From an uncultured Spartobacteria bacterium (lineage in GTDB: Bacteria; Verrucomicrobiota; Verrucomicrobiia; Chthoniobacterales; JAATET01): 64,000 nucleotides of DNA. Below, piece by piece: positions 12,903 through 64,000 of the stretch. The first letter of the stretch is position 1. Every line of letters starts with the position of its first letter. The DNA is taken from assembly GCA_938011325.1 (NCBI GenBank), contig CALLUD010000013.1:7461-71460 (forward strand), in the 5' to 3' direction. Position numbers and translations under genes: made by a program. A model generated the notes under the pieces. That model saw only the letters and a program-made list of their open reading frames with translations, did no database searches and was not told where the DNA came from.

Positions 12903-12931
12903 CTGTCTCAGTTTTTGCATCGATGAGACAG
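12903..12931 (+). promoter_or_regulatory. Hairpin that sequesters the start codon (8-bp stem CTGTCTCA/TGAGACAG, 13-nt loop); an identical copy lies at 12715-12743
   Basis: A perfect inverted repeat read directly from the sequence. The TG of the ATG at 12923-12925 sits in the 3' arm. An imperfect 11-bp inverted repeat lies upstream (TCCCTTTGAGG at 12860-12870 and CCTTCAAGGGA at 12880-12890). Confidence 0.45.
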
Positions 12932-21869: not shown

Positions 21870-22010
21870 CAATGTTGGCGCCCTGAAAACGCGCCGGGGG
21901 TGGCCGGTTGCCGCTTGCACGCTGAATCCCTTAACAACCGGTTGGGACTTCGGGAATGAAAAAGAGAAACGCTTGCCCTCGCGCAAGCCGGTTTCAAGCG
22001 GTCTTTTGCA

Positions 22011-22039
22011 TTGGCACGCACTTTGCCGCCTTGCATAAT
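22011..22039 (+). promoter_or_regulatory. Sigma70-like promoter candidate for the EAL gene
   Basis: TTGGCA (22011-22016), 17-nt spacer, CATAAT (22034-22039), 12 nt before the ATG at 22052. Confidence 0.5.
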
Positions 22040-22051
22040 GCCCGCTCATCC

Positions 22052-32773: not shown

Positions 32774-32801
32774 TCCGCTGCAACGGACGCAGCCGCGTCG
32801 A

Positions 32802-33794: not shown

Positions 33795-33838
33795 GGGGAA
33801 CGGACATAACGTGATGTCCCGTCCTCCCCGCGTCAAAG

Positions 33839-42296: not shown

Positions 42297-44300
42297 TCAA
42301 AGAGTTCGGCCATTGCGATTTTTCCAAAAAACCAGCGCACCCAGTCCGAAGAAAAACAGCCCCAGCAAATGCGGTTCCGGCACGGCCACCACACGCAACA
42401 CCCCCGTCTCGAGCAGGGAAGACGTGTCCCAAGCCAGGCCGTCCTGAAGCGCGGGAAGATCGTAGTTCGAGAACTCTCCACTGGCCGAGCCGGACCAGTC
42501 GAAAAGATCAAATTCGTTTCCGGCCTTCGGAGTGAAGCCGCCGATCAAGTTGATTCGAAGCGTTCCACCCTCCAGTTGGAAGTCTCCCGAGATCGTCAAC
42601 TGATCGTAGTTCGCCAATCCGTTCAAATCGAACGCGATCGTGCCGGCATTGCCGAGTTCCAGCCCGCCGATTTGCAGCGCTCCGGTGAAGCCAACGCCCG
42701 CAACGGCCAGAGCGCCTCCCACGATTTCCAATTCACCGGTGCCGAGTGCCTGATTGCTTGCCGAAAGCGTTCCGGCCTCGAGCACGGTTCCTCCCGAGTA
42801 GGTGTTTGCTCCGGTGAGGGTCAACACTCCCGTTCCATTCTTCACCAGATTGCCTGTGCCGCTTATGGCGCCTGCATAAGTCCAGGGATTGGCACGGGAA
42901 ATCACGACGGTCGCGTTGTTCTCGATGTCTCCCGCGATCGAGCCACCCAAGCCGCCCTGTCCAATTTGGAGGGTGCCGCCCTCGACTTTGGTCAGGCCGG
43001 TGTAGGTGTTCTCTCCACTCAGCAGCAACCGGTAGTCGCCACGTTTCGTCAACCCTCCACTCCCCGAGATGCCTGCGTAATAGGAGTAGTCCATCTCCCG
43101 ATTGAAAATCAGCTCTCCATCGTTGATGACACTTCCATTCAGCCCTCCGAATCCCGCAATTTCGACCGCACCTTCGGCGATTGTCATCGTCCCCGTGCCA
43201 TACTTGCCATTCTTCATGACGAAGGTGCCGCTTCCCAATTTGGTGAAATCACCATTTCCTGAGATCCCGTTTTCGTAAACGAAGGTGCCTGAATGGTTCA
43301 CCACCAGGTGCGCTGAATTTATCACGCTTCCCGTGAGCGACGGCAATGAACCGCCGTTCCCGATCTGCAGGGTTCCTTCCTCGACGTAGAGCGTGCTGTC
43401 GATCTTCGCACCCAGCAACGTGAGTTTGTTTTCCCCTACTTTGGTAATCCTACCTCCGGCTCCGGTGACCGTGTTGGTGAAAACAATGTCGTCCGAGCGG
43501 TCAAAGACCAGATTGCCAGAGTTCTCGATCTTTCCCGTAATCCAGCCGGAAGATCCGCCATTTCCAATTTTAAGTGTGGCGTTACTGCCGATGGCCGTGC
43601 CTCCGGTGTGGGAAAGGTTGCCGGTGACGACTACGGTTCCGGTTCCCAACAACTGCACTTGGCCGGTGCCACTCACATTGCTGGCGAGGATGAAATTGTC
43701 ATTGTGGTTGAAGAGAAGGCTCCCGCTCGTCTTGCCAAATTCGATTGCTGCGGCGGAGAGCTTTCCCGACGGAAGCGGCTGCATACCGCTTCTCGCACCG
43801 ATCGTCAAAACGCCGGCATTCCCCACTCCGATTCCGGAAACGATGTGGATCGTTCCCTGCCCATCGCCGACGGACAATTCCCCGCCCGAGTGCAGGTAAA
43901 CATAGCCCTCACCGGATTCTCCGATCTCCAGCGAATCCGTATTCCACACACCTCCCACGTATACCGTGCCCTTCCCTCCCGACTCAGCTCCCAACACGGC
44001 GGATCCACTCTTCAGAGACCCTCCTTCGAGAATATAGACAGAGCCCGAATTGGCCGGGCCAATCATCAGGCTCTCGCCCGCATTCGCAGCAACTCTGCTT
44101 CCGATATTGGCACTCCCATTGCTGCCAATAATCGTGAGACTGGTGCTCTCATCGGGGACTCCGCCGCTCCAATTTTGCTCAGCATCCCACTGACCGCTCC
44201 CCGCGATCCATTGCGAAGTTGCGGCGAAAAGACTGCTCATCCCGGAAATCCACAGCACCGGAACGATAATACGCACCCGAGATGGGAGGACGTGAAGCAT
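42297..44300 (-). CDS. Autotransporter-associated beta-strand repeat protein with PEP-CTERM anchor
   Basis: 667 aa with a signal peptide. Repeats such as GTGVLTLTGANTYSGGTVLEAGTL and LLLSGENTYTGLTKVEGGTLQIG. C-terminus VAVPEPHLLGLFFFGLGALVFWKNR. It abuts the downstream LamG gene with no gap. Confidence 0.88.
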   Translation of the reverse strand: MLHVLPSRVRIIVPVLWISGMSSLFAATSQWIAGSGQWDAEQNWSGGVPDESTSLTIIGSNGSANIGSRVAANAGESLMIGPANSGSVYILEGGSLKSGSAVLGAESGGKGTVYVGGVWNTDSLEIGESGEGYVYLHSGGELSVGDGQGTIHIVSGIGVGNAGVLTIGARSGMQPLPSGKLSAAAIEFGKTSGSLLFNHNDNFILASNVSGTGQVQLLGTGTVVVTGNLSHTGGTAIGSNATLKIGNGGSSGWITGKIENSGNLVFDRSDDIVFTNTVTGAGGRITKVGENKLTLLGAKIDSTLYVEEGTLQIGNGGSLPSLTGSVINSAHLVVNHSGTFVYENGISGNGDFTKLGSGTFVMKNGKYGTGTMTIAEGAVEIAGFGGLNGSVINDGELIFNREMDYSYYAGISGSGGLTKRGDYRLLLSGENTYTGLTKVEGGTLQIGQGGLGGSIAGDIENNATVVISRANPWTYAGAISGTGNLVKNGTGVLTLTGANTYSGGTVLEAGTLSASNQALGTGELEIVGGALAVAGVGFTGALQIGGLELGNAGTIAFDLNGLANYDQLTISGDFQLEGGTLRINLIGGFTPKAGNEFDLFDWSGSASGEFSNYDLPALQDGLAWDTSSLLETGVLRVVAVPEPHLLGLFFFGLGALVFWKNRNGRTL

Positions 44301-44358
44301 AGGAAATATTCCCTACTTCATGCGCAATTCGAGGAAGTAATCAAGCAAATTTGGAAAA

Positions 44359-44697
44359 TCACATTTCGCCCGGTGATGTGGCGCAACGCACAACGGGAAT
44401 CGCCTCGCAACGCTCGCGCCAGCCGGGAAAATTCCACGTGTTGGGGAAGCCGCGGCATTGATGCGGCTTCACGGGCTGGATCGTGCAGTTGTTGCCTTCG
44501 AGGAAGATGCACTCGCCATTCGGCTTGTCGATGAGGGCAAGTCCGTCGCGTTTCGGGCGAAGCCGCGTGTAGCGCTGGATGAAGTCGTATTCATCCAGCG
44601 CGAGGAAATTTGCGATCGCGGTGATGTCCGCGTCGCTGAGTCGCACGAAGCCCGGCCAGCGGCAGCAATTCGCACAGCGCTGGCATTGATACCACAC
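44359..44697 (-). CDS. YkgJ-family (CxxCxxCC) cysteine-cluster protein
   Basis: Only the last 112 codons of track ORF 44359..45681 are plausible. Proposed GTG start (complement of 44695-44697) gives (M)WYQCQRCANCCRWPGFVRLSDADI...ECIFLEGNNCTIQPVKPHQCRGFP. The rest of the ORF is antisense to rfbB. Confidence 0.7.
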   Translation of the reverse strand: MWYQCQRCANCCRWPGFVRLSDADITAIANFLALDEYDFIQRYTRLRPKRDGLALIDKPNGECIFLEGNNCTIQPVKPHQCRGFPNTWNFPGWRERCEAIPVVRCATSPGEM

Positions 44698-44736
44698 GGT
44701 TGCAGCGCCGCTTGCGTCTCTGCTAGAACCGCCGCC

Positions 44737-45723
44737 ATGCGTCTTCTCGTCACCGGCGGAGCCGGGTTCATCGGCAGCAATTTCGTTCGTTTTGTTCTCG
44801 AGCACTATCAGCCGGAATTTGTCACCAACGTGGACGCCCTCACCTACGCGGGCAATCCGGAAAATCTTCACGGCATCGATACGACTTACGAGGGTCGCTA
44901 CGAATTCCACCGCGCCGACATCGCCGATCGCGAGGCGATGGACGCGATCTTTGCGCAGCACAAATATTACGCCGTCATCAATTTCGCCGCCGAGTCGCAC
45001 GTCGACCGCAGCATTGCGTCGCCGGAGAACTTCATTCACACGAACGTCGCCGGCACTCAGGTCCTGCTCGACGCCGCCCGTCGTCATGGCGTGAAGCGCT
45101 TCGTGCAGATTTCGACCGACGAAGTCTACGGATCGCTTGGCGAGGAAGGCCGTTTCACCGAAACGTCGCCGCTCGCGCCGAGTTCGCCGTATTCGGCCAG
45201 CAAGGCCAGCGCCGATCTTCTCGCGCTCGCCGCGTTCAAGACCTACGGCCAGGAGGTCGTCATCACCCGTTGCTCGAACAACTACGGGCCGTATCAGTTT
45301 CCCGAGAAACTCATTCCTCTGATGATCACCAACGCGCTCCGCGACGAGAAACTGCCGGTTTATGGGGACGGCCTCAACGTGCGCGACTGGATTCATGTGG
45401 ACGATCACTGCCGCGCCATCACCGCCGTGCTCTTCGAAGGCACGCCGGGCGAAGTCTACAACGTCGGTGCCGACGCCGAGATGCGAAACATCGACGTCGT
45501 GAAGCTCATCCTGAAAACCCTCGGCAAGCCCGAGTCGCTCATCGAATACGTCGCGGACCGCCCCGGCCACGACCGCCGTTACGCGATCGATTCGACCAAA
45601 CTGCGCGCGCAGCTCGATTGGAAGCCGATCCACGAGGCGAACGCAGGCATCGCCGAGACCGTGCAGTGGTATCTGGACCACGAGGCGTGGTGGCGCCCGC
45701 TTCTCAACCGCGCCCGCTTGTGA
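44737..45723 (+). CDS. rfbB: dTDP-glucose 4,6-dehydratase
   Basis: Start MRLLVTGGAGFIGSNFV at 44737; the track ORF starts earlier at 44458. Contains STDEVYG, YSASKASADL and DGLNVRDWIHVDDH. Confidence 0.93.
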   Translation: MRLLVTGGAGFIGSNFVRFVLEHYQPEFVTNVDALTYAGNPENLHGIDTTYEGRYEFHRADIADREAMDAIFAQHKYYAVINFAAESHVDRSIASPENFIHTNVAGTQVLLDAARRHGVKRFVQISTDEVYGSLGEEGRFTETSPLAPSSPYSASKASADLLALAAFKTYGQEVVITRCSNNYGPYQFPEKLIPLMITNALRDEKLPVYGDGLNVRDWIHVDDHCRAITAVLFEGTPGEVYNVGADAEMRNIDVVKLILKTLGKPESLIEYVADRPGHDRRYAIDSTKLRAQLDWKPIHEANAGIAETVQWYLDHEAWWRPLLNRARL

Positions 45724-46586
45724 AAGTCGCCATTCTCGGATCCCGTGGGCGTCTTGGCGCCGCCTTGCTCCGCGAGTGGAGCGAGAAATTCAACATGCGC
45801 GGCTTTGCACGCCCGGAACTCGATCTGCTTGTTCCCGCGACGATCGATCAATGCCTCGAAGGCGACTTCAACTGGGTCGTCAACTGCGCGGCGCACACGA
45901 ATGTCGACGCCTGCGAACGCCAGCCCGAGGAGGCGCGCCTTGCGAATACCGTCGCGCCCCGCCGGATCGCGGAGATTTGTGCGAAGAAGCGCGCCCGGCT
46001 CATTCACATCAGCACCGACTACGTCTTCGACGGGCGCAATCGCGAGCCCTACGACGAGGAAGCCGCGCCGAGTCCGCTCAGCGTTTACGGACGCTCGAAA
46101 GCGGATGGCGAGGCCGAGGTGCTCGCCGCGCTTCCCAATGCGATCGTCGCGCGGGTTTCTTGGGTGTTCGGACCTGACAAGCCAAGCTTCATCGACATGC
46201 TGCTCGGCCGCGCTTTGGCGAATGACCAGGTCGCCGCAATCGCCGACAAATGGTCCACGCCCACCTACACGATCCATCTCGCACAGTGGCTGCGAATGCT
46301 CATCGAAGCGGACGCCGCCGGTGGCGTGTATCACCTCTGCAACGACGGCGAATGCACCTGGCGTGAATACGGCGCCTATGCCCTCGAATGCGCGCGCGAA
46401 CTCGGCCTGCCGGTCAAGACGACGGAAGTCGCGCCGCTCGAGCTCGCAAGCATGGAGGGCTTCATCGCCGAGCGGCCCGTTTACACGGTGATGTCCACCG
46501 GGCGATTTCGCGAAGCATTCCACTACGATCCGCCACCGTGGCAAACCGCGGTGCGCGAATACCTCCGCGATCACCCGCCCTGCTGA
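45720..46586 (+). CDS. rfbD: dTDP-4-dehydrorhamnose reductase
   Basis: The GTG start at 45720 overlaps the rfbB stop (GTGA) and gives (M)KVAILGSRGRLGAAL. Contains VVNCAAHTNVDACE, ISTDYVFDG and YGRSKADGE. The earlier part of the track ORF is out-of-frame overlap with rfbB. Confidence 0.9.
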   Translation: MKVAILGSRGRLGAALLREWSEKFNMRGFARPELDLLVPATIDQCLEGDFNWVVNCAAHTNVDACERQPEEARLANTVAPRRIAEICAKKRARLIHISTDYVFDGRNREPYDEEAAPSPLSVYGRSKADGEAEVLAALPNAIVARVSWVFGPDKPSFIDMLLGRALANDQVAAIADKWSTPTYTIHLAQWLRMLIEADAAGGVYHLCNDGECTWREYGAYALECARELGLPVKTTEVAPLELASMEGFIAERPVYTVMSTGRFREAFHYDPPPWQTAVREYLRDHPPC

Positions 46587-46625
46587 GAAAACGTCGCGCG
46601 GATTTCAGTCCGGAAAAGAGCCGGA

Positions 46626-46985
46626 CTATAAAAAGAAGCTGACCATCAGCACCGCGAACACGACCGCGGAAACTCCCGCGTAGAGCCAGTCCTTCGACGC
46701 CCCATAGCCGATTCCGGCGAGCAGCACCCGCACGAGCGGATTCAGGAGCAGCAGCAACACGCCGATTTGAATCACCGCCGCGTCGTGTCCGCTCACCGCC
46801 GCCTGGAAGATCGCCACGGGATGCCGCAGGTCCGCCGGCTCACCCGTGAATTTCCGGTCTCCCGGTGTTTGCGAGCCATGTTCTGCGAGAAAAACGACGC
46901 CGCCAGCGAGCAACACCGCCGCCGCGAGCAGCACGCCCCAAAGCATGATCCGCGCAAGAAGGTTTCGAATGCTTTGCTCGTTCAT
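46626..46985 (-). CDS. DUF1634-family small membrane protein
   Basis: 119 aa with 3-4 hydrophobic helices. It lies immediately downstream of a TauE/SafE-like gene, a pairing I recall as typical for this family. Confidence 0.6.
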   Translation of the reverse strand: MNEQSIRNLLARIMLWGVLLAAAVLLAGGVVFLAEHGSQTPGDRKFTGEPADLRHPVAIFQAAVSGHDAAVIQIGVLLLLLNPLVRVLLAGIGYGASKDWLYAGVSAVVFAVLMVSFFL

Positions 46986-50634: not shown

Positions 50635-51474
50635 ATGTCTCCCCGCCTTTTCCTTTTCGCCGTTCTCCTGGCCGCCACCAATCTCACCCTCGCCCGCGCC
50701 GGTGAAGCCTGCCGATCCGTCCACCTCTGGTATTCGGATGCCCCCGTGGCGGACGCGTTTTACAACGAGGTCCGTGTCCAGGAATCCGCCGATGGCGCGT
50801 ATTTCGCGGTGTGCGGATGGAGTCGTGGATACTTCGGCATTCAGCAGCTGGGTGACGGACGCAAGGTCGTCATCTTTTCCGTGTGGGATCCGCCCGCCGG
50901 CGATCACCCCGACGAAGTGCCGCCGGAAAAGCGGGTGCAACTCCTCTTCCAGGGCGACGACGTCCGCGTCAATCGATTCGGATACGAGGGCACCGGTGGT
51001 CAGTCCTTCCTGGACTTTCCGTGGAAGACCGACGCCACCTACCGCTTCCTTGTCACCGCCCGTCCGCACGGTTCGACGCATGTCGCCTACGCCGGTTACT
51101 TTTATCTTCCCGAGGAAGGCCGCTGGAAACACCTCGCCACCTTCGCCACGCTCATCCCTCCCGGCGAGGGACTCCGCGGACTCTACTCGTTCGTCGAGGA
51201 TTTCATCCGCAACGACGAAAGCACCCGTCACGTCCGGCGCGCGATCTACGGTCCGGGCTGGGTGCGGACCGGGAATGACGAATGGACCCCGCTCCTGCAG
51301 GCCACCTTCACCGCCGACAACAACCCCGCCCGCAACATCGACGCCGGCCTCGCCCCACCAGGCTTCTTCCTCTCAACCGGCGGCACCACCCCGGAAAACG
51401 CCAGCCTCCTCCAAAAAACATTCCACCTCCCCAAAGCCGGCAAACCACCCGCGGATCTGCCTGAGGGCTCTTAA
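50635..51474 (+). CDS. Secreted DUF3472-like domain protein
   Basis: Start [22 protein letters not shown] (signal peptide) at 50635; the track ORF starts at 50401. Contains [17 protein letters not shown] and VIFSVWDP, which resemble DUF3472. The call is from memory. Confidence 0.6.
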
Positions 51475-51655
51475 CCACAAGGAACAGAGCGAGTTCCACG
51501 ACTCCACGCATCCCGGGACGCCCCGCTTCCCATTTCGGCTTCCGAAATCGGAATTCTGCATTCGAAGATTCCTCGGAAAATTTACACACGGTGTTGAATC
51601 TCCCACTCGGACGCGTATATTCCTGCGCCTGCTTTAACCAGCGCGGGCATTCCCT

Positions 51656-52588
51656 ATGAACAAACCAAGTCTCCCCGCAGTGAGCGCCTTGTTTGGCGCC
51701 ATCTTCCTTGCAACCGCCACCGCCGCCTCGGTCAACGTGCAATTTGGCTCCGACGTTTACATTGGCTGGGGGGCGATCCCCAACGGTGGCATCTATTGGA
51801 ATTTTTATGATGAGCCGTCCAATTCACCGACGCGGCACCTGAAAGACGGCTCTGGAGAGGAAACCCCGGCAGCCATTCACGCCATCTACCAAGGAAAGTT
51901 TAAGGGAGGCCCGCCGCCCACCACCAAAGACGGCAAAGGCCGGAATCCGGGACACCTTCTCGGTAGTGGACTCTACGGTCCAGTCGACCTCCACATCCTT
52001 GGGCTGGACCCCAGCAAGTCTTATGACGTTTACGTCTATGTTTTCAACAGCGATAACAACCCCACCACGGTGACACTCACCGATGCGAAAGGCTCGTCTT
52101 CCCGGAACCCCTCACCGGTCAATCAGGAAGATGATTTTCGGCTGAATGAGAACTACGTGGTATTTTCAAACACCACGCCCTCAAATACCGTTCTCCGACC
52201 ACACTCCGGCAGTTTGCAGATCAAAGTGGAAGGCGCCGAGACGGGATTGAATGGGCTTCAGTTGGTCGAAAAAGCACAATCCGAACCCAACCCGTCACCC
52301 TCGCAGGAACCGAATCCGCCCACTGTCAAAATTCGCCCAAACAGCGGAAAGATCGTCACCCGGAAATCGCGAGTCACTTTGCATGGCACCGCCAGATCCG
52401 ACGTTGGTCTGCGTGCCGTGCGCACATCCCTCAACCGCAATACCTGGCGGAAAGCTCGCGGAACGACTCACTGGACAGCCGTCATCTCCGCGAAAGAGCG
52501 CACCCGCGTCTTTGTCCGCGCCGAGGATGTGAACGGCACCTTTTCCTCCGTGGAATCGGTCGTCATTGTCCCGAAACGGAATCGCTGA
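51656..52588 (+). CDS. Secreted hypothetical protein with a C-terminal Ig-like domain homologous to that of the 47958..49061 product
   Basis: 310 aa with signal peptide MNKPSLPAVSALFGAIFLATATAAS. The C-terminal segment RVTLHGTARSD...WRKARGTTHWTAVI...VFVRAEDVNGTFSS aligns with KVKIKGTASTN...FKKAKGTKRWRANV...IQVRATVGTTSS. Confidence 0.65.
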   Translation: MNKPSLPAVSALFGAIFLATATAASVNVQFGSDVYIGWGAIPNGGIYWNFYDEPSNSPTRHLKDGSGEETPAAIHAIYQGKFKGGPPPTTKDGKGRNPGHLLGSGLYGPVDLHILGLDPSKSYDVYVYVFNSDNNPTTVTLTDAKGSSSRNPSPVNQEDDFRLNENYVVFSNTTPSNTVLRPHSGSLQIKVEGAETGLNGLQLVEKAQSEPNPSPSQEPNPPTVKIRPNSGKIVTRKSRVTLHGTARSDVGLRAVRTSLNRNTWRKARGTTHWTAVISAKERTRVFVRAEDVNGTFSSVESVVIVPKRNR

Positions 52589-52600
52589 GTCTTCAATCAG

Positions 52601-52638
52601 GGACACACGCGTGCTCCAAGCTCGCGGTGTCCATTTCC
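52601..52638 (+). terminator. Possible intrinsic terminator after the 51656..52588 gene
   Basis: GGACAC(A)CGCG, an 11-nt loop, then CGCGGTGTCC (10 bp with one bulge), followed by ATTTCC. The T-run is short. Confidence 0.35.
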
Positions 52639-52654
52639 GTCTAGAGACCGCGGC

Positions 52655-52846
52655 TCACACGCCCGCGTAGTAGTCCAGCTGATCGAGGTCGCTGAGGAGA
52701 TCCGGCCCTGTCGACGTCCAGCCGGGAAGGCGGTGTGTTCGCTCGATGCGCGCATGCCGGCCTCTGCAAAATGCGCGAACCATCCCAAGTGCTCGCGAGG
52801 CCTGTCACCTCTTGCCCCGCGTCGAGCAACTCCTCAACGACCGCCG
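52655..52846 (-). pseudogene. Possible 5'-truncated, frameshifted remnant of an NAD(P)-binding epimerase/NmrA-like gene
   Basis: One minus-strand frame reads SAVVEELLDAGQEVTGLAS, which resembles the conserved helix after the GxxGxxG loop of such proteins. A second frame ends ...PDLLSDLDQLDYYAGV-stop. No intact ORF or N-terminal Rossmann loop is present. Confidence 0.3.
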
Positions 52847-52850
52847 AGCT

Positions 52851-53627
52851 TTATTCCGCCAGCAGCTTCACGGTATTGACGCGCTCGAACATCTCCTGCG
52901 GATTGTCCCGCATCGCCTTCGCCGGGCCGACGCAAATTTCGTCGAGACCGGCAGCCAGTCCCGCCCAGGCCTCCGCGACGAATTCCGAAACGGGAATGCC
53001 GATCTCGCGTCCGCGCGGCCCGATGTAGTCGTGCAGCTCCGTCGCCACCGCGGGCGGCGCGATCTCGATCACCCGCACGTTCGTCTCCCGCAGTTGATGT
53101 CGCAGCGAGAGCGTGAAGGAATGGAGCGCCGCCTTCGTCGCGCAATACACCGGCACCTGCGCGAGCGGCACGAACGCGAGTCCGCTCGAGATGTTGATGA
53201 TCGTCGCGCGCGGCTGCTGGAGCAGGTGCGGAAGAAACGCCGCCGTGGCGCTGAAGAGCGCGCGCAGGTTCGTGTCGAGTTCCAGATCGCAGAAATCCAG
53301 CGGCGTCGGCTGCGTCAGGTCAAACACGCGCTGCACGCCGGCATTGTTGATGAGGCAGTCGACCGGGCCAAACTTTGCCGGAATCCCCTCCGCGGCGCGG
53401 GCGAGCGCGGCGCGGTCGGTGATGTCGAGCGGATACGCCTGGATGCCCGGCGTCCCGCGGGAGACCTCCTCCAGCGCCGCCACGCGCCGGCCGGTGATGG
53501 TCACGCGGGCGCCGTGCCTGGCCAGGGTTTCAGCCAGCGCGCGGCCAATGCCGGAGCCGCCGCCGGTGATCACTGCGTGCTGTGTGGAAAACTTCGAGTC
53601 GTCGTGAACTTGATTTTCGGTGCTCAT
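52851..53627 (-). CDS. Short-chain dehydrogenase/reductase (SDR) family oxidoreductase
   Basis: The last 258 codons of track ORF 52851..54662, from MSTENQVHDD (complement of 53625-53627). Contains ITGGGSGIGRA, NNAG and YCATKAA. Confidence 0.88.
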   Translation of the reverse strand: MSTENQVHDDSKFSTQHAVITGGGSGIGRALAETLARHGARVTITGRRVAALEEVSRGTPGIQAYPLDITDRAALARAAEGIPAKFGPVDCLINNAGVQRVFDLTQPTPLDFCDLELDTNLRALFSATAAFLPHLLQQPRATIINISSGLAFVPLAQVPVYCATKAALHSFTLSLRHQLRETNVRVIEIAPPAVATELHDYIGPRGREIGIPVSEFVAEAWAGLAAGLDEICVGPAKAMRDNPQEMFERVNTVKLLAE

Positions 53628-56567: not shown

Positions 56568-57407
56568 CTAAAACTCGCGCCAGATGGCCACTTTGAATCC
56601 TCCTCCGCCACCGGTCGCCCGGCCCGCCACGGAAAAATACGGTCCGGCCTGAATCGTCCAGTGCCGCGCCGGGTGCACGAGCAGAGAGCCGCCAATCTTG
56701 ATGAGGTCGAAATCAGTGGTGAGCAGGATGTTGTTGCCGACGTATTGAGGCTGGTCATTGCCCAGGCCGTGAATGCCACTTGCCTCGAGGTAGTAAATTT
56801 CCAGCCAATCGGTGAGGTGCAACCCCGCGGTGACATACCAGCGCAGCTCGTCGGCGGGCGCACCCGTGCGCAGGCGAAAGCCGGCTCCCGCGTCCACAAA
56901 GCCCCAACGCTCGAACACCTTGTAACTCGAACCAATATAGTAGGCGAGTTCCACGTCCGTCTGCCCGTTGCCCAGCGCCGGCTGCACGTTCACATAATAG
57001 GGTCCGGGAATTTTCACCGTGAGCTGGAGCGACTGCGGAATTCGTTCGAAAAGCTGATAGCGCAATCCGACCTCCTGGTCGGCGGGGCCAAAGTTGTTCT
57101 GACGTCCAAAGCGATTCTCGAACGTCAACGCGTCGAGGAAGAAGTTCCCGATCAAGGTGAGCCGCTTGAAGAGGCCGTATTCGACATAGAGGTTCAGCTC
57201 GTTCTTGATGAACCGCCCCTCGTAGCCAAACGGCTCGAGATGCCAGCCGTCTCCGAATTGAGTGTCCGTGCCGTAGAAGTAATACGTCAGAATCGAGAGA
57301 CCGCGCCCCTCGGGTTGTGCCCAGGCTCCTGCGTGCAGGTTTCCCGGTAGAAGAAGAAGAACGAGCCCTGTCGCGAGGGTGGATAATTTCCGGCAAATAG
57401 GCGGCAC
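56568..57407 (-). CDS. Predicted outer-membrane beta-barrel protein, divergent from the synthase operon
   Basis: Alternating-pattern strands (LSILTYYFYG, LNLYVEYGL, VELAYYIGSSYKV, ...) and a C-terminus GFKVAIWREF ending in Phe. A GTG start (complement of 57405-57407) gives signal peptide (M)PPICRKLSTLATGLVLLLLPGNLHA. The track ATG at 57479 adds 24 non-signal residues. Confidence 0.65.
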   Translation of the reverse strand: MPPICRKLSTLATGLVLLLLPGNLHAGAWAQPEGRGLSILTYYFYGTDTQFGDGWHLEPFGYEGRFIKNELNLYVEYGLFKRLTLIGNFFLDALTFENRFGRQNNFGPADQEVGLRYQLFERIPQSLQLTVKIPGPYYVNVQPALGNGQTDVELAYYIGSSYKVFERWGFVDAGAGFRLRTGAPADELRWYVTAGLHLTDWLEIYYLEASGIHGLGNDQPQYVGNNILLTTDFDLIKIGGSLLVHPARHWTIQAGPYFSVAGRATGGGGGFKVAIWREF

Positions 57408-58662
57408 GGCGCGGATTCTTAGCTTGCCTGACCGGAGTCGCAAGGCACTATCTGCACGGATTTGCTCAACAGAAGCCAACGAATTGGAAGCATCCCCGAA
57501 TCGTCAAGCCATCGTCCACTATCTCCAGACGAATCGTTTCTGTGAAGGACTGCCGTTTCCGATCCTCGAGGCTCTGGCCAGCTCGATCACCGTCCTGGAA
57601 ATGGAAAAGGATGCCGTTCTTTTCGAGGACGAGGACCTCACGCACTCCGTCCATCTCGTCGCCTCGGGGGAAATCGGGTTTCTGATTCGCATGACCCCCA
57701 GCTCGGGCTTCACGGAAATCGCCCGCGTCGGGAAGAACGAATTTTTTGGCGAAGGCGCGGCCATCGACGACCTCGCCGCCCAGGAACAGAGTCCCGGCGC
57801 AAACGGCTTCATCCGCCGCTCGGCGCGCAGCGCGCGCATCATCTGCCGGGAAAAGGCGCTCCTTCTCCGGCTGCCGGCCACGGAGTTTGAGCGCCTGCTC
57901 CGCGAGCACCCCCTGCTGCTCTGCCGGAATCTTCTGCGTTCGTCGTCCGACAAGCTCCGCATGGGCGTGCAGCGCACGTTCGACGAAGCCCTCGCCCGGG
58001 AAAGCCGGCACCTGCTGGCCCACATCAGCCACTGGCTCGCGCGCCGCATGGAGAATCCGGTGTCCACCCTCCGCCTCCAATCGGGCCTCCTCGCGGAACA
58101 GGACGCCGCCCGATCGGCAGCCCCCATCGCCGCCGCAACCGACGACCTCGCGGCCACCCTCCATTCCGTGGCGCGCCTGGCCGGCACCGCCCGGCAACGC
58201 CTCACGTGGGAAACCTTCGCCGTGCGCGACTGGTGGAACGAGACCGAATCCGGGGTCCTCGACCAACTCGAGCCGCGCGGGATCGCTCTCGACAGCTACC
58301 TCGAGGACTTCACCGTGGAATCGAGCCGTCCCCTGCTGCGCGACGCCATGCTCGACCTGCTCGCGGGTGTCGCCCGGCTCAACCCCGGGGAGGGTCGGAT
58401 CGGCCTCCGGGCCGGCCGCCACCACGGGCATGCCGAGATTCACGTCCACGCCATCCTGCCCGGTTTCAATGACGTCGTGGCCCGACGGCTGTTTGAGCCC
58501 TTCTCCGGCGACGGGATCGACCACGAAGCCGCCGTCCGCTTCGCGCTTGCCCGTCAGACCGCCCGGCGCCTGGGCGGCGACACCACGGTGAAGCGTCGCG
58601 ATGGCGAACGCGTCACCTTCGCCCTTACCCTGCCCACCCGTCGCCCTGATGCATCTGTTTGA
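57379..58662 (+). CDS. Cyclic-nucleotide-binding domain protein fused to a histidine-kinase-like module with a degenerate ATP-binding domain
   Basis: 427 aa. CAP_ED-like LEMEKDAVLFEDEDLTHSVHLVASGE...FFGEGA...RSARIIC. DHp-like LLAHISHWLARRMENPVSTL. The C-terminal HATPase-like fold ends ...GERVTFALTLP, but I could not find the canonical N, G1 or G2 boxes. The start is uncertain (ATG 57379 or TTG 57424). Confidence 0.7.
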   Translation: MDNFRQIGGTARILSLPDRSRKALSARICSTEANELEASPNRQAIVHYLQTNRFCEGLPFPILEALASSITVLEMEKDAVLFEDEDLTHSVHLVASGEIGFLIRMTPSSGFTEIARVGKNEFFGEGAAIDDLAAQEQSPGANGFIRRSARSARIICREKALLLRLPATEFERLLREHPLLLCRNLLRSSSDKLRMGVQRTFDEALARESRHLLAHISHWLARRMENPVSTLRLQSGLLAEQDAARSAAPIAAATDDLAATLHSVARLAGTARQRLTWETFAVRDWWNETESGVLDQLEPRGIALDSYLEDFTVESSRPLLRDAMLDLLAGVARLNPGEGRIGLRAGRHHGHAEIHVHAILPGFNDVVARRLFEPFSGDGIDHEAAVRFALARQTARRLGGDTTVKRRDGERVTFALTLPTRRPDASV

Positions 58663-59143: not shown

Positions 59144-61119
59144 ACACACTCCGCCTGCTCCTCATCCTCCTGCTCGTGGCCCGCGTGGCTGCGGCCCGGC
59201 CGATCGAAGTTCCGACCACGCTCGACGATGCCGGCATCGCGCAACCCGACCGCGTCCACGGCACGCAAACCATAAAGGACTACTTTCTGCCGCTGCCCTC
59301 GCGTGTCTTCGACGCCGCGCGCTCCCGCATCCTGGTCGAGGTGCAGCCCTCTCCGTTCGTCCACCCCGCCTCGCTGATCACGATTCTCATCAACGACCGT
59401 CCCGTCGACACCGCTCGCGCGGGCACAGGCGGAGTCGTCGTTCTCGAAGGTCCCATCCCTCCCGGCACCCGCAACGACGACCCGAGCCGGAACATCCTCA
59501 AGCTTTCGGTAAAGACCCACCTCCGCCCCGTCGATCCCAACACCGAGCTCGACGACGAATCCGCCTGGGTGGAAGTGCTGCCGTCCTCCACCTTCACCTG
59601 CCGGTTCGACGCGTCGTCGCCCGACTGGACCGCGCTCGGACGACTTGCAATCACGCTGCGTCCGCAAATCGAGGTCGTGCTCCCGAAGGAATCCGCCGCC
59701 CCGCAGATCGACCTCGCCCTCAAGACCGCCGCCTGGGCCGCCCGCCACGCTCCGGCGAGCCGGCTGCGGTTTCTCGACGAGGACGCTCCCGACGCCAAAG
59801 ACGCGGACCGCTTCGTGATCGAGGCCGCGACCGCCGGCCGCCCGCCGGTTGACATCACCATCTCGGAAACAGGCCGCATAATTCATTTGCGTGCCGGCAA
59901 CGAAGCCGAAGCTGCCAACACGTGGAGCACGCTGCTCGCCGCCGCGAACGTTCCGCTGCCCGGACCCGCGTGGAACGCATCGCAGGCCGCTCCGGAGGCC
60001 ACCTCGGCGGACGGCGGCCGCTTCGTCGGCGATCTCGACGCATCAGCGCTGGCCATAAACCGCGGCGCCGGCGACACGAGCCGGAGCTTCCGGTTCGACG
60101 CTGCAAAAATTTCTCCGAAACCCGCCAGCCTCTCGCTGCACCTGGCCGGCACGATTTCCCCGATCCACAAAGGCGCCGAGCCCATCGTCGCAGTGCTCCT
60201 CAACGACGAGTTGGTGTTCTCCGAGCGGCTTCCCGCCGGCTCGCGCGCGTTCGACTGGGAGATCCCGCTTGCCGCATCCCAGCTCCGCGGCAACAACGAA
60301 GTCACCGTGCGGATCAGCCCGCCCGCCGGTGACCGCACCCCGTATCTCTGGCAGATCAGCCGGGCAAGCACGCTCCGTGTGCGGGAACCCGCCGAGGCGA
60401 AGAAACCCACCGGCCTCCTCGAAGCGGCGCGGTATTTCGCGCCCGAGCCGTTCCTAGTCTGGCTCGCGCGACCCACGGACTGGCGCGTCGCCGCGTTCGC
60501 AGTCGCCTGGCTCCAACGTGTGAATCCGGCCGTCCAGCTCACGCCGCGCCTGACGACAGCGCTGGACGAAAACGTGTCTGCCGTCGTCGTGGGCGGACTT
60601 ACCGGCAAACAGCCGGAGGCCCTCACGCAACCGCCGGTCACATTTGGAGAAAACACGCTGACAATCCACTCGCGGCCCGGCATGCCCGCGCTGACGCTCT
60701 CGCCTGCGACGTCGCTCGGCATCTGGCAGCTTGGGGAGTCCGCGAAGGGCGCTCCGGTTCTGCTCGCCGACGGCTGGGGGCCCGCCGCTGCCGCCGCGCT
60801 TGAAAGCGTCTCCGCGCAGATGGCCGACTCGGCCTGGGTCGAGGGCGGGGACGCCATCGTCGGCGACGGCTCGACCCCGGTGCTCACCTTTGCCACGCGC
60901 GACACGCCTCTGCCACCCGTCGACGCCCTGCCCGAGGCGCTCGCCGCACCGACTTCCGCCGGGGCCATGCAAAACGCTCCGGCCCCGGCCGGCGGAATCG
61001 AATCCGCCCACGACGGCACACGGCATCTACGCTGGGTGGTGATCGCCGCACTCTGGATCGTGTTATCGGCCGTCATTGTCTGGATCTTCGAGCAGGGACG
61101 CCGCCGGGCGGTGAACTGA
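59140..61119 (+). CDS. BcsB-like periplasmic synthase subunit candidate (signal peptide plus C-terminal TM anchor)
   Basis: A GTG at 59140 overlaps the upstream stop (GTGA) and gives (M)NTLRLLLILLLVARVAAA; the alternative ATG is at 59122. Two internal segments fit the BcsB pattern (ASLITILINDRPVD and IVAVLLNDELVFSERLP). C-terminal TM: LRWVVIAALWIVLSAVIVWIF. The family call is tentative. Confidence 0.55.
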   Translation: MNTLRLLLILLLVARVAAARPIEVPTTLDDAGIAQPDRVHGTQTIKDYFLPLPSRVFDAARSRILVEVQPSPFVHPASLITILINDRPVDTARAGTGGVVVLEGPIPPGTRNDDPSRNILKLSVKTHLRPVDPNTELDDESAWVEVLPSSTFTCRFDASSPDWTALGRLAITLRPQIEVVLPKESAAPQIDLALKTAAWAARHAPASRLRFLDEDAPDAKDADRFVIEAATAGRPPVDITISETGRIIHLRAGNEAEAANTWSTLLAAANVPLPGPAWNASQAAPEATSADGGRFVGDLDASALAINRGAGDTSRSFRFDAAKISPKPASLSLHLAGTISPIHKGAEPIVAVLLNDELVFSERLPAGSRAFDWEIPLAASQLRGNNEVTVRISPPAGDRTPYLWQISRASTLRVREPAEAKKPTGLLEAARYFAPEPFLVWLARPTDWRVAAFAVAWLQRVNPAVQLTPRLTTALDENVSAVVVGGLTGKQPEALTQPPVTFGENTLTIHSRPGMPALTLSPATSLGIWQLGESAKGAPVLLADGWGPAAAAALESVSAQMADSAWVEGGDAIVGDGSTPVLTFATRDTPLPPVDALPEALAAPTSAGAMQNAPAPAGGIESAHDGTRHLRWVVIAALWIVLSAVIVWIFEQGRRRAVN

Positions 61120-62951
61120 TGCAGCTCGTCAACCATCTCTTCGAACGCGGAATCATCGACCCGGCTGCGCGCCGTCATGTCGAGCGACAGGCGGAAAGAT
61201 GGGGCGTGCCTGCCCACGGGCTTCTCCGCACGCTCGGCCTCGTCTCGGCCGAGTGCTACCTCGAACACTACGAACGCGTGTATCGCATCCCGCGTGCCGA
61301 GGCCGCGAACCTGCGGCTCTCGGAGGAGCTCGCGTCCATGGCTCCCTGGGAAACCTGGCGCGACGCGCTCGCCCTACCGGTCGCCCTCCCCGACGGCACG
61401 CCGCGCATCGCAGCGGTCGATCCCGTGAACCTGCCGCCTGCCCTGCGTGGAACGGAGGCGGTCCTCATCCTCGAGGAGGAATGGGTGGAACTCGCCGGAC
61501 GCTTCTACGGAACACCCTTTCTCGACGAGGCGATCCACGGCCTCGCCCGCGCGCATCCCCGCCTCTCCGCGCAACGCACGTTCACGACCTCCCAGCTGGT
61601 TATCGCGTGGCTGGCCGGCACCGCGATGCTCCTCGCGATCGGGCTCGCCCCCCGCATCTCATTCATCGCGCTCAACTGCGTGCTGAATGTCTTCTTCGCC
61701 ATGTGCGTCGGCTTCAAGACGCTGCTCGCCTTCGTCGGCTCCACGCGCAACGTCTCGCAAAAGGTCTCCCCGCTCGAAATCGAGCGCCTGGATGAGCGTT
61801 CGCTGCCCGTCTACACGATCCTCGTCCCGGTCTACAGGGAACCGACGGTCGTTCCGAATCTCATCCGCCAGCTCACCAGGCTCAACTACCCGCTCTGCAA
61901 GCTGGACGTGAAGGTGCTGCTTGAAGAGGGCGACGACGAAACGATCGCCGCCTTCCGCAGCGCCGCGCCACCGCCGAATTTCCACGCCCTCATCGTTCCG
62001 AACGCCCAGCCGAAGACAAAGCCCAAGGCCTGCAACTACGGCCTCTTCTTTTCCCGCGGCGAATACCTCGCCATCTACGACGCGGAGGATTTTCCCGAGC
62101 CCGACCAGCTCGAAAAGGTCGTCGCCGCCTTCCGCAAGCTCCCCGATCGCGTCGTCTGCATCCAGGGCTGCCTCAATTATTTCAACTGGCGCGACAACCT
62201 GCTCACGCGCCTGTTCACGCTCGAGTATTCGGGCTGGTTCGACTACAACCTGCCCGGCATGGAGGCGCTCAAGGTGCCGATCCCGCTCGGCGGCACGAGC
62301 AACCATTTCAAAATCGACCGCCTCCGCGAACTCGGCGCCTGGGACCCCTACAACGTCACCGAGGACGCCGACCTCGGCGTGCGCGCGAGCGCCCGCGGCT
62401 ACACCGTCGCCACGATCGACTCCACGACCTACGAGGAGGCCAACTGCGCCTACGGCAACTGGATCCGGCAGCGCTCGCGCTGGATCAAAGGCTACATGCA
62501 GACGTTCCTCGTGCACATGCGCGACCCGGTGCGGCTCATCCGCACGATCGGCCTGCGCGCCTTCCTCGGCTTCGTCCTTTTCATCGGCGGCACGCCGCTC
62601 GTCTTTCTCCTCAATCCCATTCTCTGGCTGCTCCTCGTCGTCTGGATCGCCACCGGCGCCACCGCAATCGCCGAGATCTTTCCGCCGTGGTTGTTCTACC
62701 TCGCGTTCGCCAATCTCGCGTTCGGCAACCTCATGGCGATCTACACCTGCGTGCTCGCCGTCTTCCGGCGCGGCAACTACCCGCTCGGCCTCTACGCCCT
62801 GCTGAATCCGCTTTACTGGATCCTCCACTCGATCGCCGCCTACAAGGGCCTGTGGCAGCTCATCGTGCGGCCGTTCTATTGGGAAAAAACGGTCCACGGC
62901 CTCTCGGCGCTGCCGGCGTCGTTCCACAGCGTCACGAAATCCCATGCGTAG
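61119..62951 (+). CDS. Processive family-2 glycosyltransferase (synthase type, multi-TM) with an N-terminal T2SSE_N/MshEN-like domain
   Basis: 610 aa; TGATG overlap with the upstream gene. Residues 1-115 are collinear with the GspE/PilB N-domain pattern (LVNHLFERGIIDPAARRHVERQ...LLRTLGLVSAECYLEHYERVYRIP...LALPVALPDGTPRIAAVDP). GT2 motifs: ILVPVYREP, YDAEDFP, VTEDADLG and QRSRWIKG. TM helices flank the catalytic domain. Confidence 0.85.
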   Translation: MQLVNHLFERGIIDPAARRHVERQAERWGVPAHGLLRTLGLVSAECYLEHYERVYRIPRAEAANLRLSEELASMAPWETWRDALALPVALPDGTPRIAAVDPVNLPPALRGTEAVLILEEEWVELAGRFYGTPFLDEAIHGLARAHPRLSAQRTFTTSQLVIAWLAGTAMLLAIGLAPRISFIALNCVLNVFFAMCVGFKTLLAFVGSTRNVSQKVSPLEIERLDERSLPVYTILVPVYREPTVVPNLIRQLTRLNYPLCKLDVKVLLEEGDDETIAAFRSAAPPPNFHALIVPNAQPKTKPKACNYGLFFSRGEYLAIYDAEDFPEPDQLEKVVAAFRKLPDRVVCIQGCLNYFNWRDNLLTRLFTLEYSGWFDYNLPGMEALKVPIPLGGTSNHFKIDRLRELGAWDPYNVTEDADLGVRASARGYTVATIDSTTYEEANCAYGNWIRQRSRWIKGYMQTFLVHMRDPVRLIRTIGLRAFLGFVLFIGGTPLVFLLNPILWLLLVVWIATGATAIAEIFPPWLFYLAFANLAFGNLMAIYTCVLAVFRRGNYPLGLYALLNPLYWILHSIAAYKGLWQLIVRPFYWEKTVHGLSALPASFHSVTKSHA

Positions 62952-64000
62952 AAACCTCACGCCGGCCGCCGGTTTCCTCTTCCTCGGACTGTGGGCCACC
63001 TATTGCGCCTTCGGCCTGCTGCTGGCGGAGGACTTCGGATTCCTCACCCGCGAGAATGCCGCCATTTCCGCCCGGGCCATTCTTGCCGCACACGGCGCCC
63101 CACTCTCGATGCTCACGCTCGGCGTGCCGAATCCGCCCCTCCCCTACGTTCTCGCCGTGCCCTTCGCGGCCCTTCATCTTCCCTTCCCGGCGATCTGGGT
63201 TTCGTCGCTCATGGGTGCGCTTCTCTGCACGTGGTTTTTCGTGTGGTTTCGCCGCGACGTCGCCCAGGCACCGGTCCTGATCCTTCCCCTTCTCCTGCTG
63301 CCCGTGCTCCCCGGCGTGCTCCACAGCTCGGCGGCGGGAACCCCCGCGATCGCGGCGATGGCGTTTCTCGTCTTTGCCGTTCATCTCGCGGCGCGGTTCG
63401 CGCTCGAACAGCAGACGTGGAACGACCTGCGGCGCGACGGCCGGCTGCCGGCGTGGTCCCATTCCGCGCAGGAGCAGGCCCATGCGATCCGCTTTCTCTG
63501 GGCTTCGGCCCTCCTTCTCGGCCTTGCCTCTTGCGCGCAGCCCGGTCTCCTTCTCGCGCTGCCCGTGTTTCTCCTCGCCACGCCATTCCTCCTGCCGCCG
63601 GCCGAGCGTCGAAACTGGCCGCGCATCCTCACCACGGCACTTCTCCTCTACCTTCCCATCCTCACGCTGCACGTCGCCACCGCCTCGCTGGGCGGATTGT
63701 TCACCGGCGATTTCTTTGCGCTGATGAAACCGCAGGGGGAAACGACTTTCACCGCCTGGTCACCCTCCGTCGCAAGCCTTCGCGAGCCGCTTGTGGGATT
63801 TCTCCTCACCGCACCCGTGCTCCTCTATGTCGTGATTCGCCTTCGCAACGCCGCCGTCGCGTTGCTGTGCGGCGTTCCCTTTCTCGTTCCGCTCATCGAG
63901 ACTGCGCTCGGCGGATCCCCCGACTGGCGAACGCTGCTCACCACCGCCCCGCTTCTCGCAACCGCCCTTCTCTTCCTCGGCTTTCGCTCGAACCGTTTTT
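62944..64000 (+). CDS. Polytopic membrane protein, possibly GT-C-like or a polymer-modifying/export component; the 3' end runs off the right window edge
   Basis: Hand translation, absent from the ORF track: MRRNLTPAAGFLFLGLWATYCAFGLLLAEDFGFLTRENA... The frame stays open for all 352 codons to the window end, with at least 8 hydrophobic helices. The ATG at 62944 overlaps the GT2 stop by 8 nt. Confidence 0.75.
   Translation, partial: MRRNLTPAAGFLFLGLWATYCAFGLLLAEDFGFLTRENAAISARAILAAHGAPLSMLTLGVPNPPLPYVLAVPFAALHLPFPAIWVSSLMGALLCTWFFVWFRRDVAQAPVLILPLLLLPVLPGVLHSSAAGTPAIAAMAFLVFAVHLAARFALEQQTWNDLRRDGRLPAWSHSAQEQAHAIRFLWASALLLGLASCAQPGLLLALPVFLLATPFLLPPAERRNWPRILTTALLLYLPILTLHVATASLGGLFTGDFFALMKPQGETTFTAWSPSVASLREPLVGFLLTAPVLLYVVIRLRNAAVALLCGVPFLVPLIETALGGSPDWRTLLTTAPLLATALLFLGFRSNRF

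Follow-up and report, generated by a model that had tools for sequence, protein, structure and literature searches.

The synthase gene and its operon

The window, by which we mean the whole analysed stretch of 64,000 nucleotides from contig CALLUD010000013.1 of an uncultured Spartobacteria bacterium, contains near its end an operon whose central gene encodes a predicted glycosyltransferase family 2 (GT2) polysaccharide synthase with an MshEN-type (T2SSE_N) domain at its N-terminus (Table 1). MshEN is the second widespread receptor module for cyclic di-GMP (c-di-GMP) after PilZ, and genome surveys often count all matches to Pfam family PF05157 as c-di-GMP receptors. In the synthase described here, the fold of this module appears to be intact, as judged from sequence comparison and structure prediction, and its ligand-binding site has been rewritten in a form shared with a verrucomicrobial clade of related synthases.

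No in-frame ATG, GTG or TTG codon is present upstream of the synthase open reading frame (ORF), and clade homologues share its start position in the alignment, so that the protein opens directly with the first ligand-binding motif. The ATG shares one base with the stop codon of the upstream BcsB-like gene (TGATG), and the ATG of the XagC-like gene at 62944 gives an overlap of 8 nucleotides with the synthase stop. Because of these overlaps, the three genes look translationally coupled.

The catalytic part is matched by the Pfam GT2 models PF13632 (2e-21) and PF13641 (1e-18), and shows the D, DxD, TED and Q(R)xRW signatures with flanking transmembrane helices that are expected of an XagB-type processive enzyme. 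The catalytic residues listed in Table 1 are invariant in an alignment of 51 sequences. An AlphaFold2 model of the full-length protein (predicted local distance difference test, pLDDT, 89.6; predicted TM-score 0.89) resembles BcsA (4P00, E=3e-12), viral and vertebrate hyaluronan synthases and chitin synthases, and the mannosyltransferase PcManGT is found among both the sequence and the fold matches. The two helices that follow the N-terminal domain are taken to span the membrane, and those behind the catalytic domain presumably form the translocation channel. A cellulose synthase of the BcsA type is not indicated, as Pfam gives no PilZ match in the synthase, at the C-terminus or elsewhere, the BcsA equivalog model TIGR03030 reaches 52.8 bits of the 699 set as its cut-off, and the PgaC equivalog also stays far below its cut-off. 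Sequence and model together identify the protein as a membrane-embedded processive GT2 polysaccharide synthase of the XagB family.

Table 1 Features of the synthase operon in the window (residue numbers refer to the synthase; HAS, hyaluronan synthase)
Feature	Position	Strand	Basis or remark
Conserved unannotated protein, 303-residue ORF	56568-57479	-	Divergent; signal-peptide-like start, ends WREF
Cyclic nucleotide-binding, histidine-kinase-like protein	57379-58662	+	Start probably downstream of 57379
Receiver (REC) protein with C-terminal transmembrane helix	58601-59143	+	Start uncertain, possibly 58649; Pfam REC match weak
BcsB-like periplasmic partner, 665 residues	59122-61119	+	PF03170, E=2e-5; signal peptide, C-terminal transmembrane anchor
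MshEN-GT2 synthase, XagB family, 610 residues	61119-62951	+	ORF; Pfam GT2 and MshEN matches
MshEN-fold N-terminal domain, residues 1 to about 150	61119-61568	+	AlphaFold2, Foldseek, hhalign
Degenerate 53-residue c-di-GMP motif region, residues 2-54	61122-61280	+	QLVNHLFERGIIDPAARRHVERQA-ERWGV-PAHGLLRTLGLVSAECYLEHYERV; gap-free alignment to canonical members
Two N-terminal transmembrane helices (predicted), residues about 157-209	61587-61745	+	AlphaFold2 helices 157-176 and 178-209; hydrophobic sequence
GT2 catalytic domain, residues about 220-470	61776-62528	+	Pfam; D272, D321-A-E-D324, T414-E-D416, Q451-R-S-R-W455
C-terminal transmembrane helices (predicted), residues about 470-583	62529-62867	+	AlphaFold2 helices 479-583; fold likeness to BcsA and HAS
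XagC-like polytopic membrane protein	62944-64000 (cut by window end)	+	Homologues follow the GT gene

The arrangement of the operon agrees with that of an XagB-type cluster. A BcsB-like gene lies directly upstream of the glycosyltransferase (GT) gene in Truepera, Mucilaginibacter, Fibrisoma, Synergistaceae and all clade loci, and XagC-like homologues of 440-541 residues follow the GT gene in every locus examined. The core order BcsB-like, GT, XagC-like thus recurs in these four groups, in Kryptonia and in the query clade, and a cluster of bcsB-like, xagB and xagC genes was described for stalk-forming iron oxidisers (PMC4643136). The divergent ORF at the left border matches nothing in Pfam, NCBIfam or the PDB sequences, and its homologues of about 270-300 residues adjoin the GT gene in every clade locus and in 14 or more distant ones. 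On the basis of sequence, it is probably an outer-membrane barrel that belongs to the Xag-type system. The public gene call at 5447-7531 of locus L001 (694 residues, minus strand) merges the homologous gene with an antisense ORF over the cyclic nucleotide-binding gene; by homology these are two divergent genes, and the call is an artefact of annotation, of a sort that high-GC DNA typically produces.

In the clade, the barrel-like gene on the opposite strand is followed by genes for the cyclic nucleotide-binding protein, the membrane-anchored receiver (REC) protein, the BcsB-like protein, the GT, the XagC-like protein and a glycoside hydrolase of family GH113. This full order is present in the window (the end of which cuts the XagC-like gene) and in loci L001, L003, L004, L168 and L169, and it is kept down to 58% identity. 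L088 has the same order, with a REC-sized gap in place of a detected REC gene. Downstream of GH113, clade loci often encode a giant protein, with GH5 nearby. Promoter and terminator scans gave results at chance level.

The N-terminal domain has an MshEN fold

The first-pass annotation had predicted an MshEN/T2SSE_N domain at the N-terminus of the synthase, and this prediction holds well. The PF05157 model matches residues 55-130 of the whole synthase at E=5e-5 with 23.6 bits, which is marginally above the gathering cut-off of 23.1, and residues 1-154 alone score 26.7 bits. The match is limited to residues 55-130 because the Pfam model lacks the first helices, which bear the ligand site (Wang et al. 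2016, supplement; PMC5013675). An HMM comparison with explicit scoring of the motifs, as had been proposed, therefore gave a significant match to the family, but the motifs could not be scored through this model, from which their helices are absent; they were scored from family alignments and a profile-profile alignment instead.

A direct phmmer search of the N-domain against PDB sequences gave a marginal result (PilB N-domain 9g1w, E=0.006), and homology was therefore established via the family and the fold. The synthase P0066 of Truepera radiovictrix, which is 48% identical over its full length and has the same domain order, matches the c-di-GMP-binding domains of PilF at 3e-13 and MshE (5HTL) at 1e-10. 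Alignment of a profile of the clade with a profile of canonical GT-fused MshEN domains (hhalign) gave a probability of 98.2% and E=3e-14, without gaps over residues 2-81. From 51 sequences, AlphaFold2 predicted residues 1-154 with a pLDDT of 93.5; the model starts with a four-helix bundle (residues 2-9, 15-28, 33-38 and 44-55) that is followed by an alpha/beta subdomain with strands in 85-116, i.e. the order MshEN_N-MshEN_C, and then by a long helix (119-145) towards the membrane. The best 20 PDB matches of this model in Foldseek are all N-domains of the MshE/PilF/PilB/XpsE type, and the next match has E>2. At the top stands MshE with bound c-di-GMP (5HTL; E=5e-6, TM-scores 0.64/0.69), accompanied by PilF GSPII-A and GSPII-B, the PilB(N)-PilZ complex of X. 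citri (7LKO) and XpsE-N. Taken together, sequence and model comparison indicate that residues 1 to about 150 have a true MshEN/T2SSE_N fold. The domain had been assumed to end at residue 115-121; the N-terminal pattern was recognized rightly, and the domain runs on to about residue 150, at window position 61568 or so.

The ligand-binding site is rewritten

Canonical MshEN domains carry two tandem copies of the pattern RLGxx(L/V/I)(L/V/I)xxG(L/V/I)(L/V/I)xxxxLxxxLxxQ, 24 residues each and separated by a 5-residue spacer (Wang et al., PMC5013675). In the query, the first motif reads QLVNHLFERGIIDPAARRHVERQA, the second PAHGLLRTLGLVSAECYLEHYERV, and the spacer is ERWGV. The leading RLG has become QLV in motif 1 and PAH in motif 2, in agreement with the earlier statement that it is absent from both. 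The register follows from the gap-free alignment, in which a query position equals the position in the MshE protein VcMshE minus 7, and motif 1 spans Q2 to A25.

The 12 residues of VcMshE that contact c-di-GMP are R9, L10, G11, L25, L29, Q32, R38, L39, G40, L54, L58 and Q61 (Wang et al., PMC5013675). Their equivalents in the query are, for motif 1, Q2 (R9), L3 (L10), V4 (G11), R18 (L25), E22 (L29) and A25 (Q32), and for motif 2, P31 (R38), A32 (L39), H33 (G40), Y47 (L54), Y51 (L58) and V54 (Q61). Eleven of the 12 positions are thus substituted, L10 being the only one retained. Both arginines (now Q2 and P31), both glutamines and both contact glycines (V4 and H33) are lost, and it is through the backbone amides of the two contact glycines that the guanine is read in MshEN. 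One of the leucine triads is now R18/E22/A32; the hydrophobic character of the second triad is conserved (L3, Y47, Y51). The two turn glycines are present (G11 and G40 in query numbering), the second one not being conserved in the clade. The claim that the terminal glutamine of motif 1 is kept was due to a register that is off by one: the equivalent of Q32 is A25, and the position of the adjacent Q24 holds Leu in 60% and Gln in 28% of the clade sequences.

Both query motifs fail the strict two-motif pattern as well as the relaxed pattern of the same authors. The relaxed regular expression was rejected as a classifier, since it also fails on the clearly canonical Truepera protein, owing to the last motif positions; motif classes were set by the hydrophobic-glycine (h-G) cores and per-position tables. 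A more informative comparison is that with XpsE, which does not bind c-di-GMP and differs from MshE by changes including G11V, R38G, G40L and Q61V (Wang et al., PMC5013675). The query has exactly the XpsE changes at G11 and Q61, and is changed at the same positions R38 and G40. In NfrB, substitution G491L at the equivalent glycine caused the strongest defect (PMC8669469). By analogy with these proteins, loss of the canonical c-di-GMP binding mode in the query domain is well supported, and from the alignments the pocket is almost certainly non-canonical in the whole verrucomicrobial clade. The choice left by the first-pass annotation between a different ligand, weak binding and a protein-interaction module was a fair set of options for a domain in which the canonical site is not intact.

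The new state is shared rather than random. Across 25 clade sequences, the former ligand positions hold a basic residue at position 18 (92%), H33 (60%), Y47 (80%) and Y51 (88%), and further conserved residues are W28 in the spacer (100%), R37, which stands in for a core hydrophobic residue (92%), and T38 (84%). Identity to the query ranges from 36 to 66% for the N-domain, against 56-80% for the whole protein, with one sequence that is closer (99% identical). These values suggest that the N-domain changes more quickly in evolution than the remainder of the synthase, yet is clearly constrained, and that the motif state of the clade represents remodelling, not decay. The clade is verrucomicrobial, its nearest genomes being two metagenome-assembled genomes of Chthoniobacterales at 65-66% identity, and it is rare in public data. 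Scans of genomes and metagenomes added five members only, several of which are cut off upstream, so that the sample of the clade stays small.

Occurrence of the fusion and of motif loss

The first-pass annotation regarded an N-terminal fusion with altered motifs as a distinct arrangement. This view has to be abandoned. Fusion of MshEN to glycosyltransferases was reported before (Wang et al. 2016, PMC5013675), and Supplementary Table 4 of that work catalogues 'MshEN - Glyco_trans_2_3' (R. sphaeroides Rsph17029_0522) beside NfrB, 'Glyco_trans_2_3 - MshEN', with the remark that a recognisable motif is missing from some of the listed proteins (PMC5013675). A word-index search returned at least 8000 homologues, with PF05157 on most of the 120 that were listed, and P0023, P0045 and P0059 are annotated as 'glycosyltransferase XagB' by JGI/NCBI. 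Clustering at 50% identity gave 10,848 representatives at E<=1e-3 and at least 2,562 at E<=1e-30, and species-representative genomes of many phyla contain at least 563 loci. As to how often GT2 proteins carry such a domain at the N-terminus, a survey that had been suggested earlier, an MshEN-like domain precedes the GT in 92 of the top 150 cluster representatives. The N-terminal MshEN-GT2 fusion is thus an already known, very large and poorly characterised family.

Motif loss, too, is recurrent in the XagB family. In the GT-proximal domains of 79 cluster representatives, both h-G cores are kept in 63, one is lost in 7 and both are lost in 9, and the latter include P0125, a fragment 63% identical to the query that carries the clade motif-2 sequence PAHTLLRT. 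Within the best 80 genome loci, all Bacteroidota (Mucilaginibacter, Pedobacter, Chitinophagaceae, Fibrisoma) have SIPELL...SFIKIAL, and canonical RLG...RLG is found in Truepera, Aquificota, several Deltaproteobacteria, Thermotogae and HR37. The domain itself is present in all family branches examined, those without motifs included. What is mildly new here is therefore not the fusion, but the rewritten ligand site with its clade signature and the signalling genes that accompany it.

Some relatives of 1,250-1,335 residues (P0128, P0134, P0144, P0146, P0148, P0150 and others) have three to six tandem MshEN-like domains before the GT, of which the GT-proximal copy usually retains its h-G cores and most upstream copies are degenerate. 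These proteins of about 1,300 residues had been considered as BcsB-GT fusions, but they contain the tandem domains instead of a BcsB-like region. Arrays of the form (MshEN)2-4 are listed on T2SSE ATPases only (Wang et al., PMC5013675). A literature match that seemed to link MshEN to exopolysaccharide (EPS) in Opitutaceae was a false positive, caused by the author name 'Mshensky'.

Signalling genes of the clade

The REC protein lacks a DNA-binding output. NCBIfam receiver models of CtrA and PmrA match it at 3e-8, and the acceptor Asp and the Lys are present in the window protein, with an acidic pocket CSDE. As a single domain ending in a transmembrane helix it is found in every clade homologue (L001, L003, L004, L007, L168, L169). 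Across the clade the pocket degenerates stepwise, from DDDE in L004, where it is intact, via the partial form of the window to AGNA in L003, where it is lost; the acceptor Asp is lost in L001. By sequence, the protein is a genuine, tail-anchored receiver homologue.

The gene before it encodes a protein with a cyclic nucleotide monophosphate (cNMP)-binding domain (PF00027, 9e-9), a HATPase_c match below the cut-off (1e-4) and homology to the dimerization and catalytic (DHp/CA) regions of kinases (CreC, 3.5e-6). The FGE and R-x-A elements of the cNMP pocket are conserved. A role as histidine kinase was considered and rejected, since three relatives have Arg in place of the window protein's H-box His, which is thus not conserved, and the G boxes of the ATP lid are absent. 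A cNMP-sensing pseudokinase is the probable identity of this protein, as deduced from these motifs.

Elsewhere the window encodes a protein with CHASE2 and a class III adenylate/guanylate cyclase domain (36926-39070, plus strand), which is adjoined by a PAS-HisKA-HATPase-REC hybrid kinase (39094-41265, minus strand), and a CSS-motif EAL protein, i.e. a c-di-GMP phosphodiesterase (21956-23689, plus strand). Because of the cyclase and the EAL protein, the organism can be said to have both cNMP and c-di-GMP signalling. No GGDEF or EAL genes were found in the clade operons, unlike in the canonical locus L031. An Rfam scan detected no family near the operon or elsewhere in the window, and therefore no known c-di-GMP riboswitch near the operon.

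Other observations concern the remainder of the window. An 862-residue protein with six PATR (passenger-associated transport) repeats is encoded at 12923-15511 (plus strand), where the GC content at the three codon positions (gc1 0.52, gc2 0.57, gc3 0.84) is unlike that of the neighbouring genes. A GC3-based ORF screen found no confident gene in four stretches of 0.9-2.2 kb, at 32773-33839, 42296-44458, 45723-46626 and 50687-52851.

Hints to the nature of the polymer

In all clade loci (L001, L003, L004, L006, L007, L088, L089 and L168-L170), the gene after the XagC-like one belongs to GH113, a beta-mannanase family. In a Synergistaceae locus, a gene for ManC (GDP-mannose pyrophosphorylase) precedes the BcsB-like gene, and a region of 5.2 kb in L087 is among the sites with mannan-related hints. 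The XagC-like protein of L031 (11811-13367) has a weak match to PMT_2, a GT-C family (8e-7). Along with GH5 and the PcManGT matches, GH113, ManC and PMT_2 hint at a mannan-like polymer. Two further genes in the window, both on the plus strand, encode a hydrolase of GH76, an alpha-mannanase family (25204-26688), and an enzyme of the GDP-mannose-4,6-dehydratase/epimerase type (44458-45723).

Proposed regulation of the synthase

The relation between motif state and operon content was examined in loci whose upstream sequence is 6 kb or longer, where a histidine kinase or REC gene on the same strand just upstream was scored as a two-component system (TCS) gene. In counts that ignore phylogeny, such a gene is present in 50 loci and absent from 4 when both motif cores are lost, present in 1 and absent from 7 when one core is kept, and present in none and absent from 8 when both are kept. 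In Mucilaginibacter, the BcsB gene is immediately preceded by that of an orphan HisKA/HATPase kinase; Fibrisoma has genes for a REC protein and a histidine kinase. The canonical deltaproteobacterial L031 is preceded by a REC-GGDEF-EAL gene and a hybrid kinase gene, which puts c-di-GMP enzymes in cis, and L048, which has kept the glycine of motif 1, has a REC-GGDEF gene in its operon. This distribution suggests that lineages without the pocket are controlled through operon-encoded proteins.

On the whole we find it fairly likely that in the verrucomicrobial clade binding of c-di-GMP was lost and that the MshEN domain was kept as a ligand-independent regulatory or docking module, with the REC protein and the pseudokinase as partners. 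The synthase would work together with the BcsB-like partner, the XagC-like protein, the probable outer-membrane barrel and, in the clade, the GH113 hydrolase. Its MshEN domain is expected at the cytoplasmic face, just ahead of the first membrane helices, where it may sit against the GT domain and gate its activity. Binding of c-di-GMP presumably activates the synthase in canonical members such as that of Truepera, by analogy with NfrB, for which gating of synthase activity by the c-di-GMP-bound MshEN domain has been proposed (PMC8669469). In the verrucomicrobial clade c-di-GMP would no longer bind, and the remodelled surface could offer a place to dock, the most plausible partner being the tail-anchored REC protein, itself perhaps controlled by the cNMP-binding pseudokinase. 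Both of these probable partners are encoded by the operon of each clade member that reaches far enough upstream. Protein binding by MshEN domains has precedents in PilB-N of X. citri, with PilZ (7LKO), and in XpsE-N. Fusions of REC to MshEN have been listed (Wang et al., PMC5013675).

Several points weigh against this proposal. The loss of binding is deduced by analogy with related sequences, and the replaced positions have become Arg, Tyr, His and Trp, which often are nucleotide-binding residues. The organism does use c-di-GMP, as indicated by the EAL protein. The association with TCS genes stems essentially from two lineages, Bacteroidota and the query clade, which have different kinase types, so that the 50 loci represent about two independent events. 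With looser criteria, TCS genes are also found near some canonical loci (L031, L034), and L005 and L082 are exceptions that have no TCS gene.

A domain without any signalling role, retained as a structural remnant for folding, insertion or oligomerisation while the cNMP-binding and REC proteins regulate, for example, transcription, would fit the faster evolution of the N-domain (36-66% against 56-80% identity) and the accumulation of degenerate copies in the tandem arrays of relatives. We consider it rather unlikely in view of the clade-invariant, surface-type residues W28 and R37, of the retention of the domain in all branches examined, and of a REC protein that is membrane-anchored, encoded beside the synthase genes and devoid of a DNA-binding output. 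The same conserved residues raise the question of another small molecule, e.g. a cyclic nucleotide, that could be bound through R18, W28, H33, R37, Y47 and Y51. Such a ligand would explain why Arg and aromatic residues are conserved at former ligand positions, and both the weaker binding of cyclic GMP-AMP (cGAMP) by MshEN in isothermal titration calorimetry (PMC5013675) and the class III cyclase encoded in the window are in line with it. On the other hand, the operon already has a dedicated cNMP-binding protein, the substitutions recreate no known nucleotide-binding motif, and several of these residues, such as R37 and W28, could equally well lend stability to the bundle or make contact with a protein, which makes this explanation quite improbable.

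Residual, weak or non-canonical binding, by which the synthase would stay under control of c-di-GMP, can be envisaged because single substitutions in MshE and NfrB only reduce the affinity (PMC5013675, PMC8669469), the second hydrophobic triad (L3, Y47, Y51) is conservatively kept and the organism has c-di-GMP enzymes. In the present domain, however, 11 of 12 contacts are changed together, including both glycines and both glutamines, and similar changes abolish binding in XpsE (PMC5013675). Moreover, both motifs fail even the relaxed pattern (as canonical Truepera also does), and the clade operons lack the GGDEF/EAL gene seen in L031; persistence of c-di-GMP control is thus very unlikely. The docking proposal may be extended to a scheme in which control in the clade has moved from c-di-GMP to a phosphorylation-independent relay, from a pseudokinase that senses cyclic AMP or cyclic GMP (cAMP/cGMP), via the tail-anchored and partly degenerate REC protein, to the remodelled pocket (R18/W28/H33/R37/Y47/Y51). 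A switch of this kind would have taken place in parallel in Bacteroidota, with a degenerate MshEN domain and an operon-encoded histidine kinase, and degenerate MshEN domains would be general adaptors through which synthases can be connected to other signalling inputs. In this complete form the scheme is doubtful.

Comparison with known systems

The gene order of a BcsB-like protein, a GT and a membrane protein of about 500 residues is common to the query and to the bcsB-like-xagB-xagC-xagD clusters (xagABCD of Xanthomonas, and those of iron oxidisers), for which a role as biofilm or EPS synthase was described (PMC3609779, PMC4643136). The likeness to XagB of Xanthomonas rests on the source annotations of homologues and on gene order. 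The query clade adds genes for the cNMP-binding pseudokinase, the REC protein and GH113, and has lost its MshEN motifs. The protein of T. radiovictrix has intact RLG...RLG motifs where the query has QLV...PAH, and its operon lacks two-component genes.

NfrB of E. coli, the only experimentally studied GT-MshEN fusion and a c-di-GMP-activated EPS synthase (PMC8669469), is like the query a processive GT2 with DxD, TED and QxxRW signatures that is fused to MshEN. Its domain order is reversed, with a C-terminal MshEN domain that has fully conserved motifs and binds c-di-GMP, and its partners are NfrA and YbcH; in the query, nothing follows the C-terminal transmembrane helices, and it does not belong to the NfrB family. 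BcsA-BcsB likewise consists of a membrane-embedded processive GT2 and a BcsB-family partner with a C-terminal transmembrane anchor. Compared with BcsA, the query has no PilZ domain and fewer transmembrane helices, and its regulatory domain is N-terminal and has a different fold.

The N-domains of XpsE (2D27/2D28) and of X. citri PilB (7LKO) have the same fold and have lost the motifs by similar substitutions. They are attached to secretion or pilus ATPases with other partners, whereas the query domain is attached to a glycosyltransferase. The XpsE domain binds XpsL, and that of PilB binds a PilZ protein, according to the title of the PDB entry (7LKO).

Implications

Whole lineages of one very large synthase family thus have MshEN folds without the canonical binding site. 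Since the PF05157 model omits the motif-bearing helices, it is blind to this loss, and to annotate such degenerate MshEN synthases as c-di-GMP-regulated would be wrong. The Xag-type synthase occurs widely and is biochemically uncharacterised. Should the link of motif loss to two-component-like genes of the operon survive a phylogenetic test, canonical synthases of the Truepera type and the degenerate ones of Verrucomicrobia and Bacteroidota would form a tractable system, and their comparison might tell what a degenerate MshEN domain does and how the regulatory inputs of EPS synthases are swapped.

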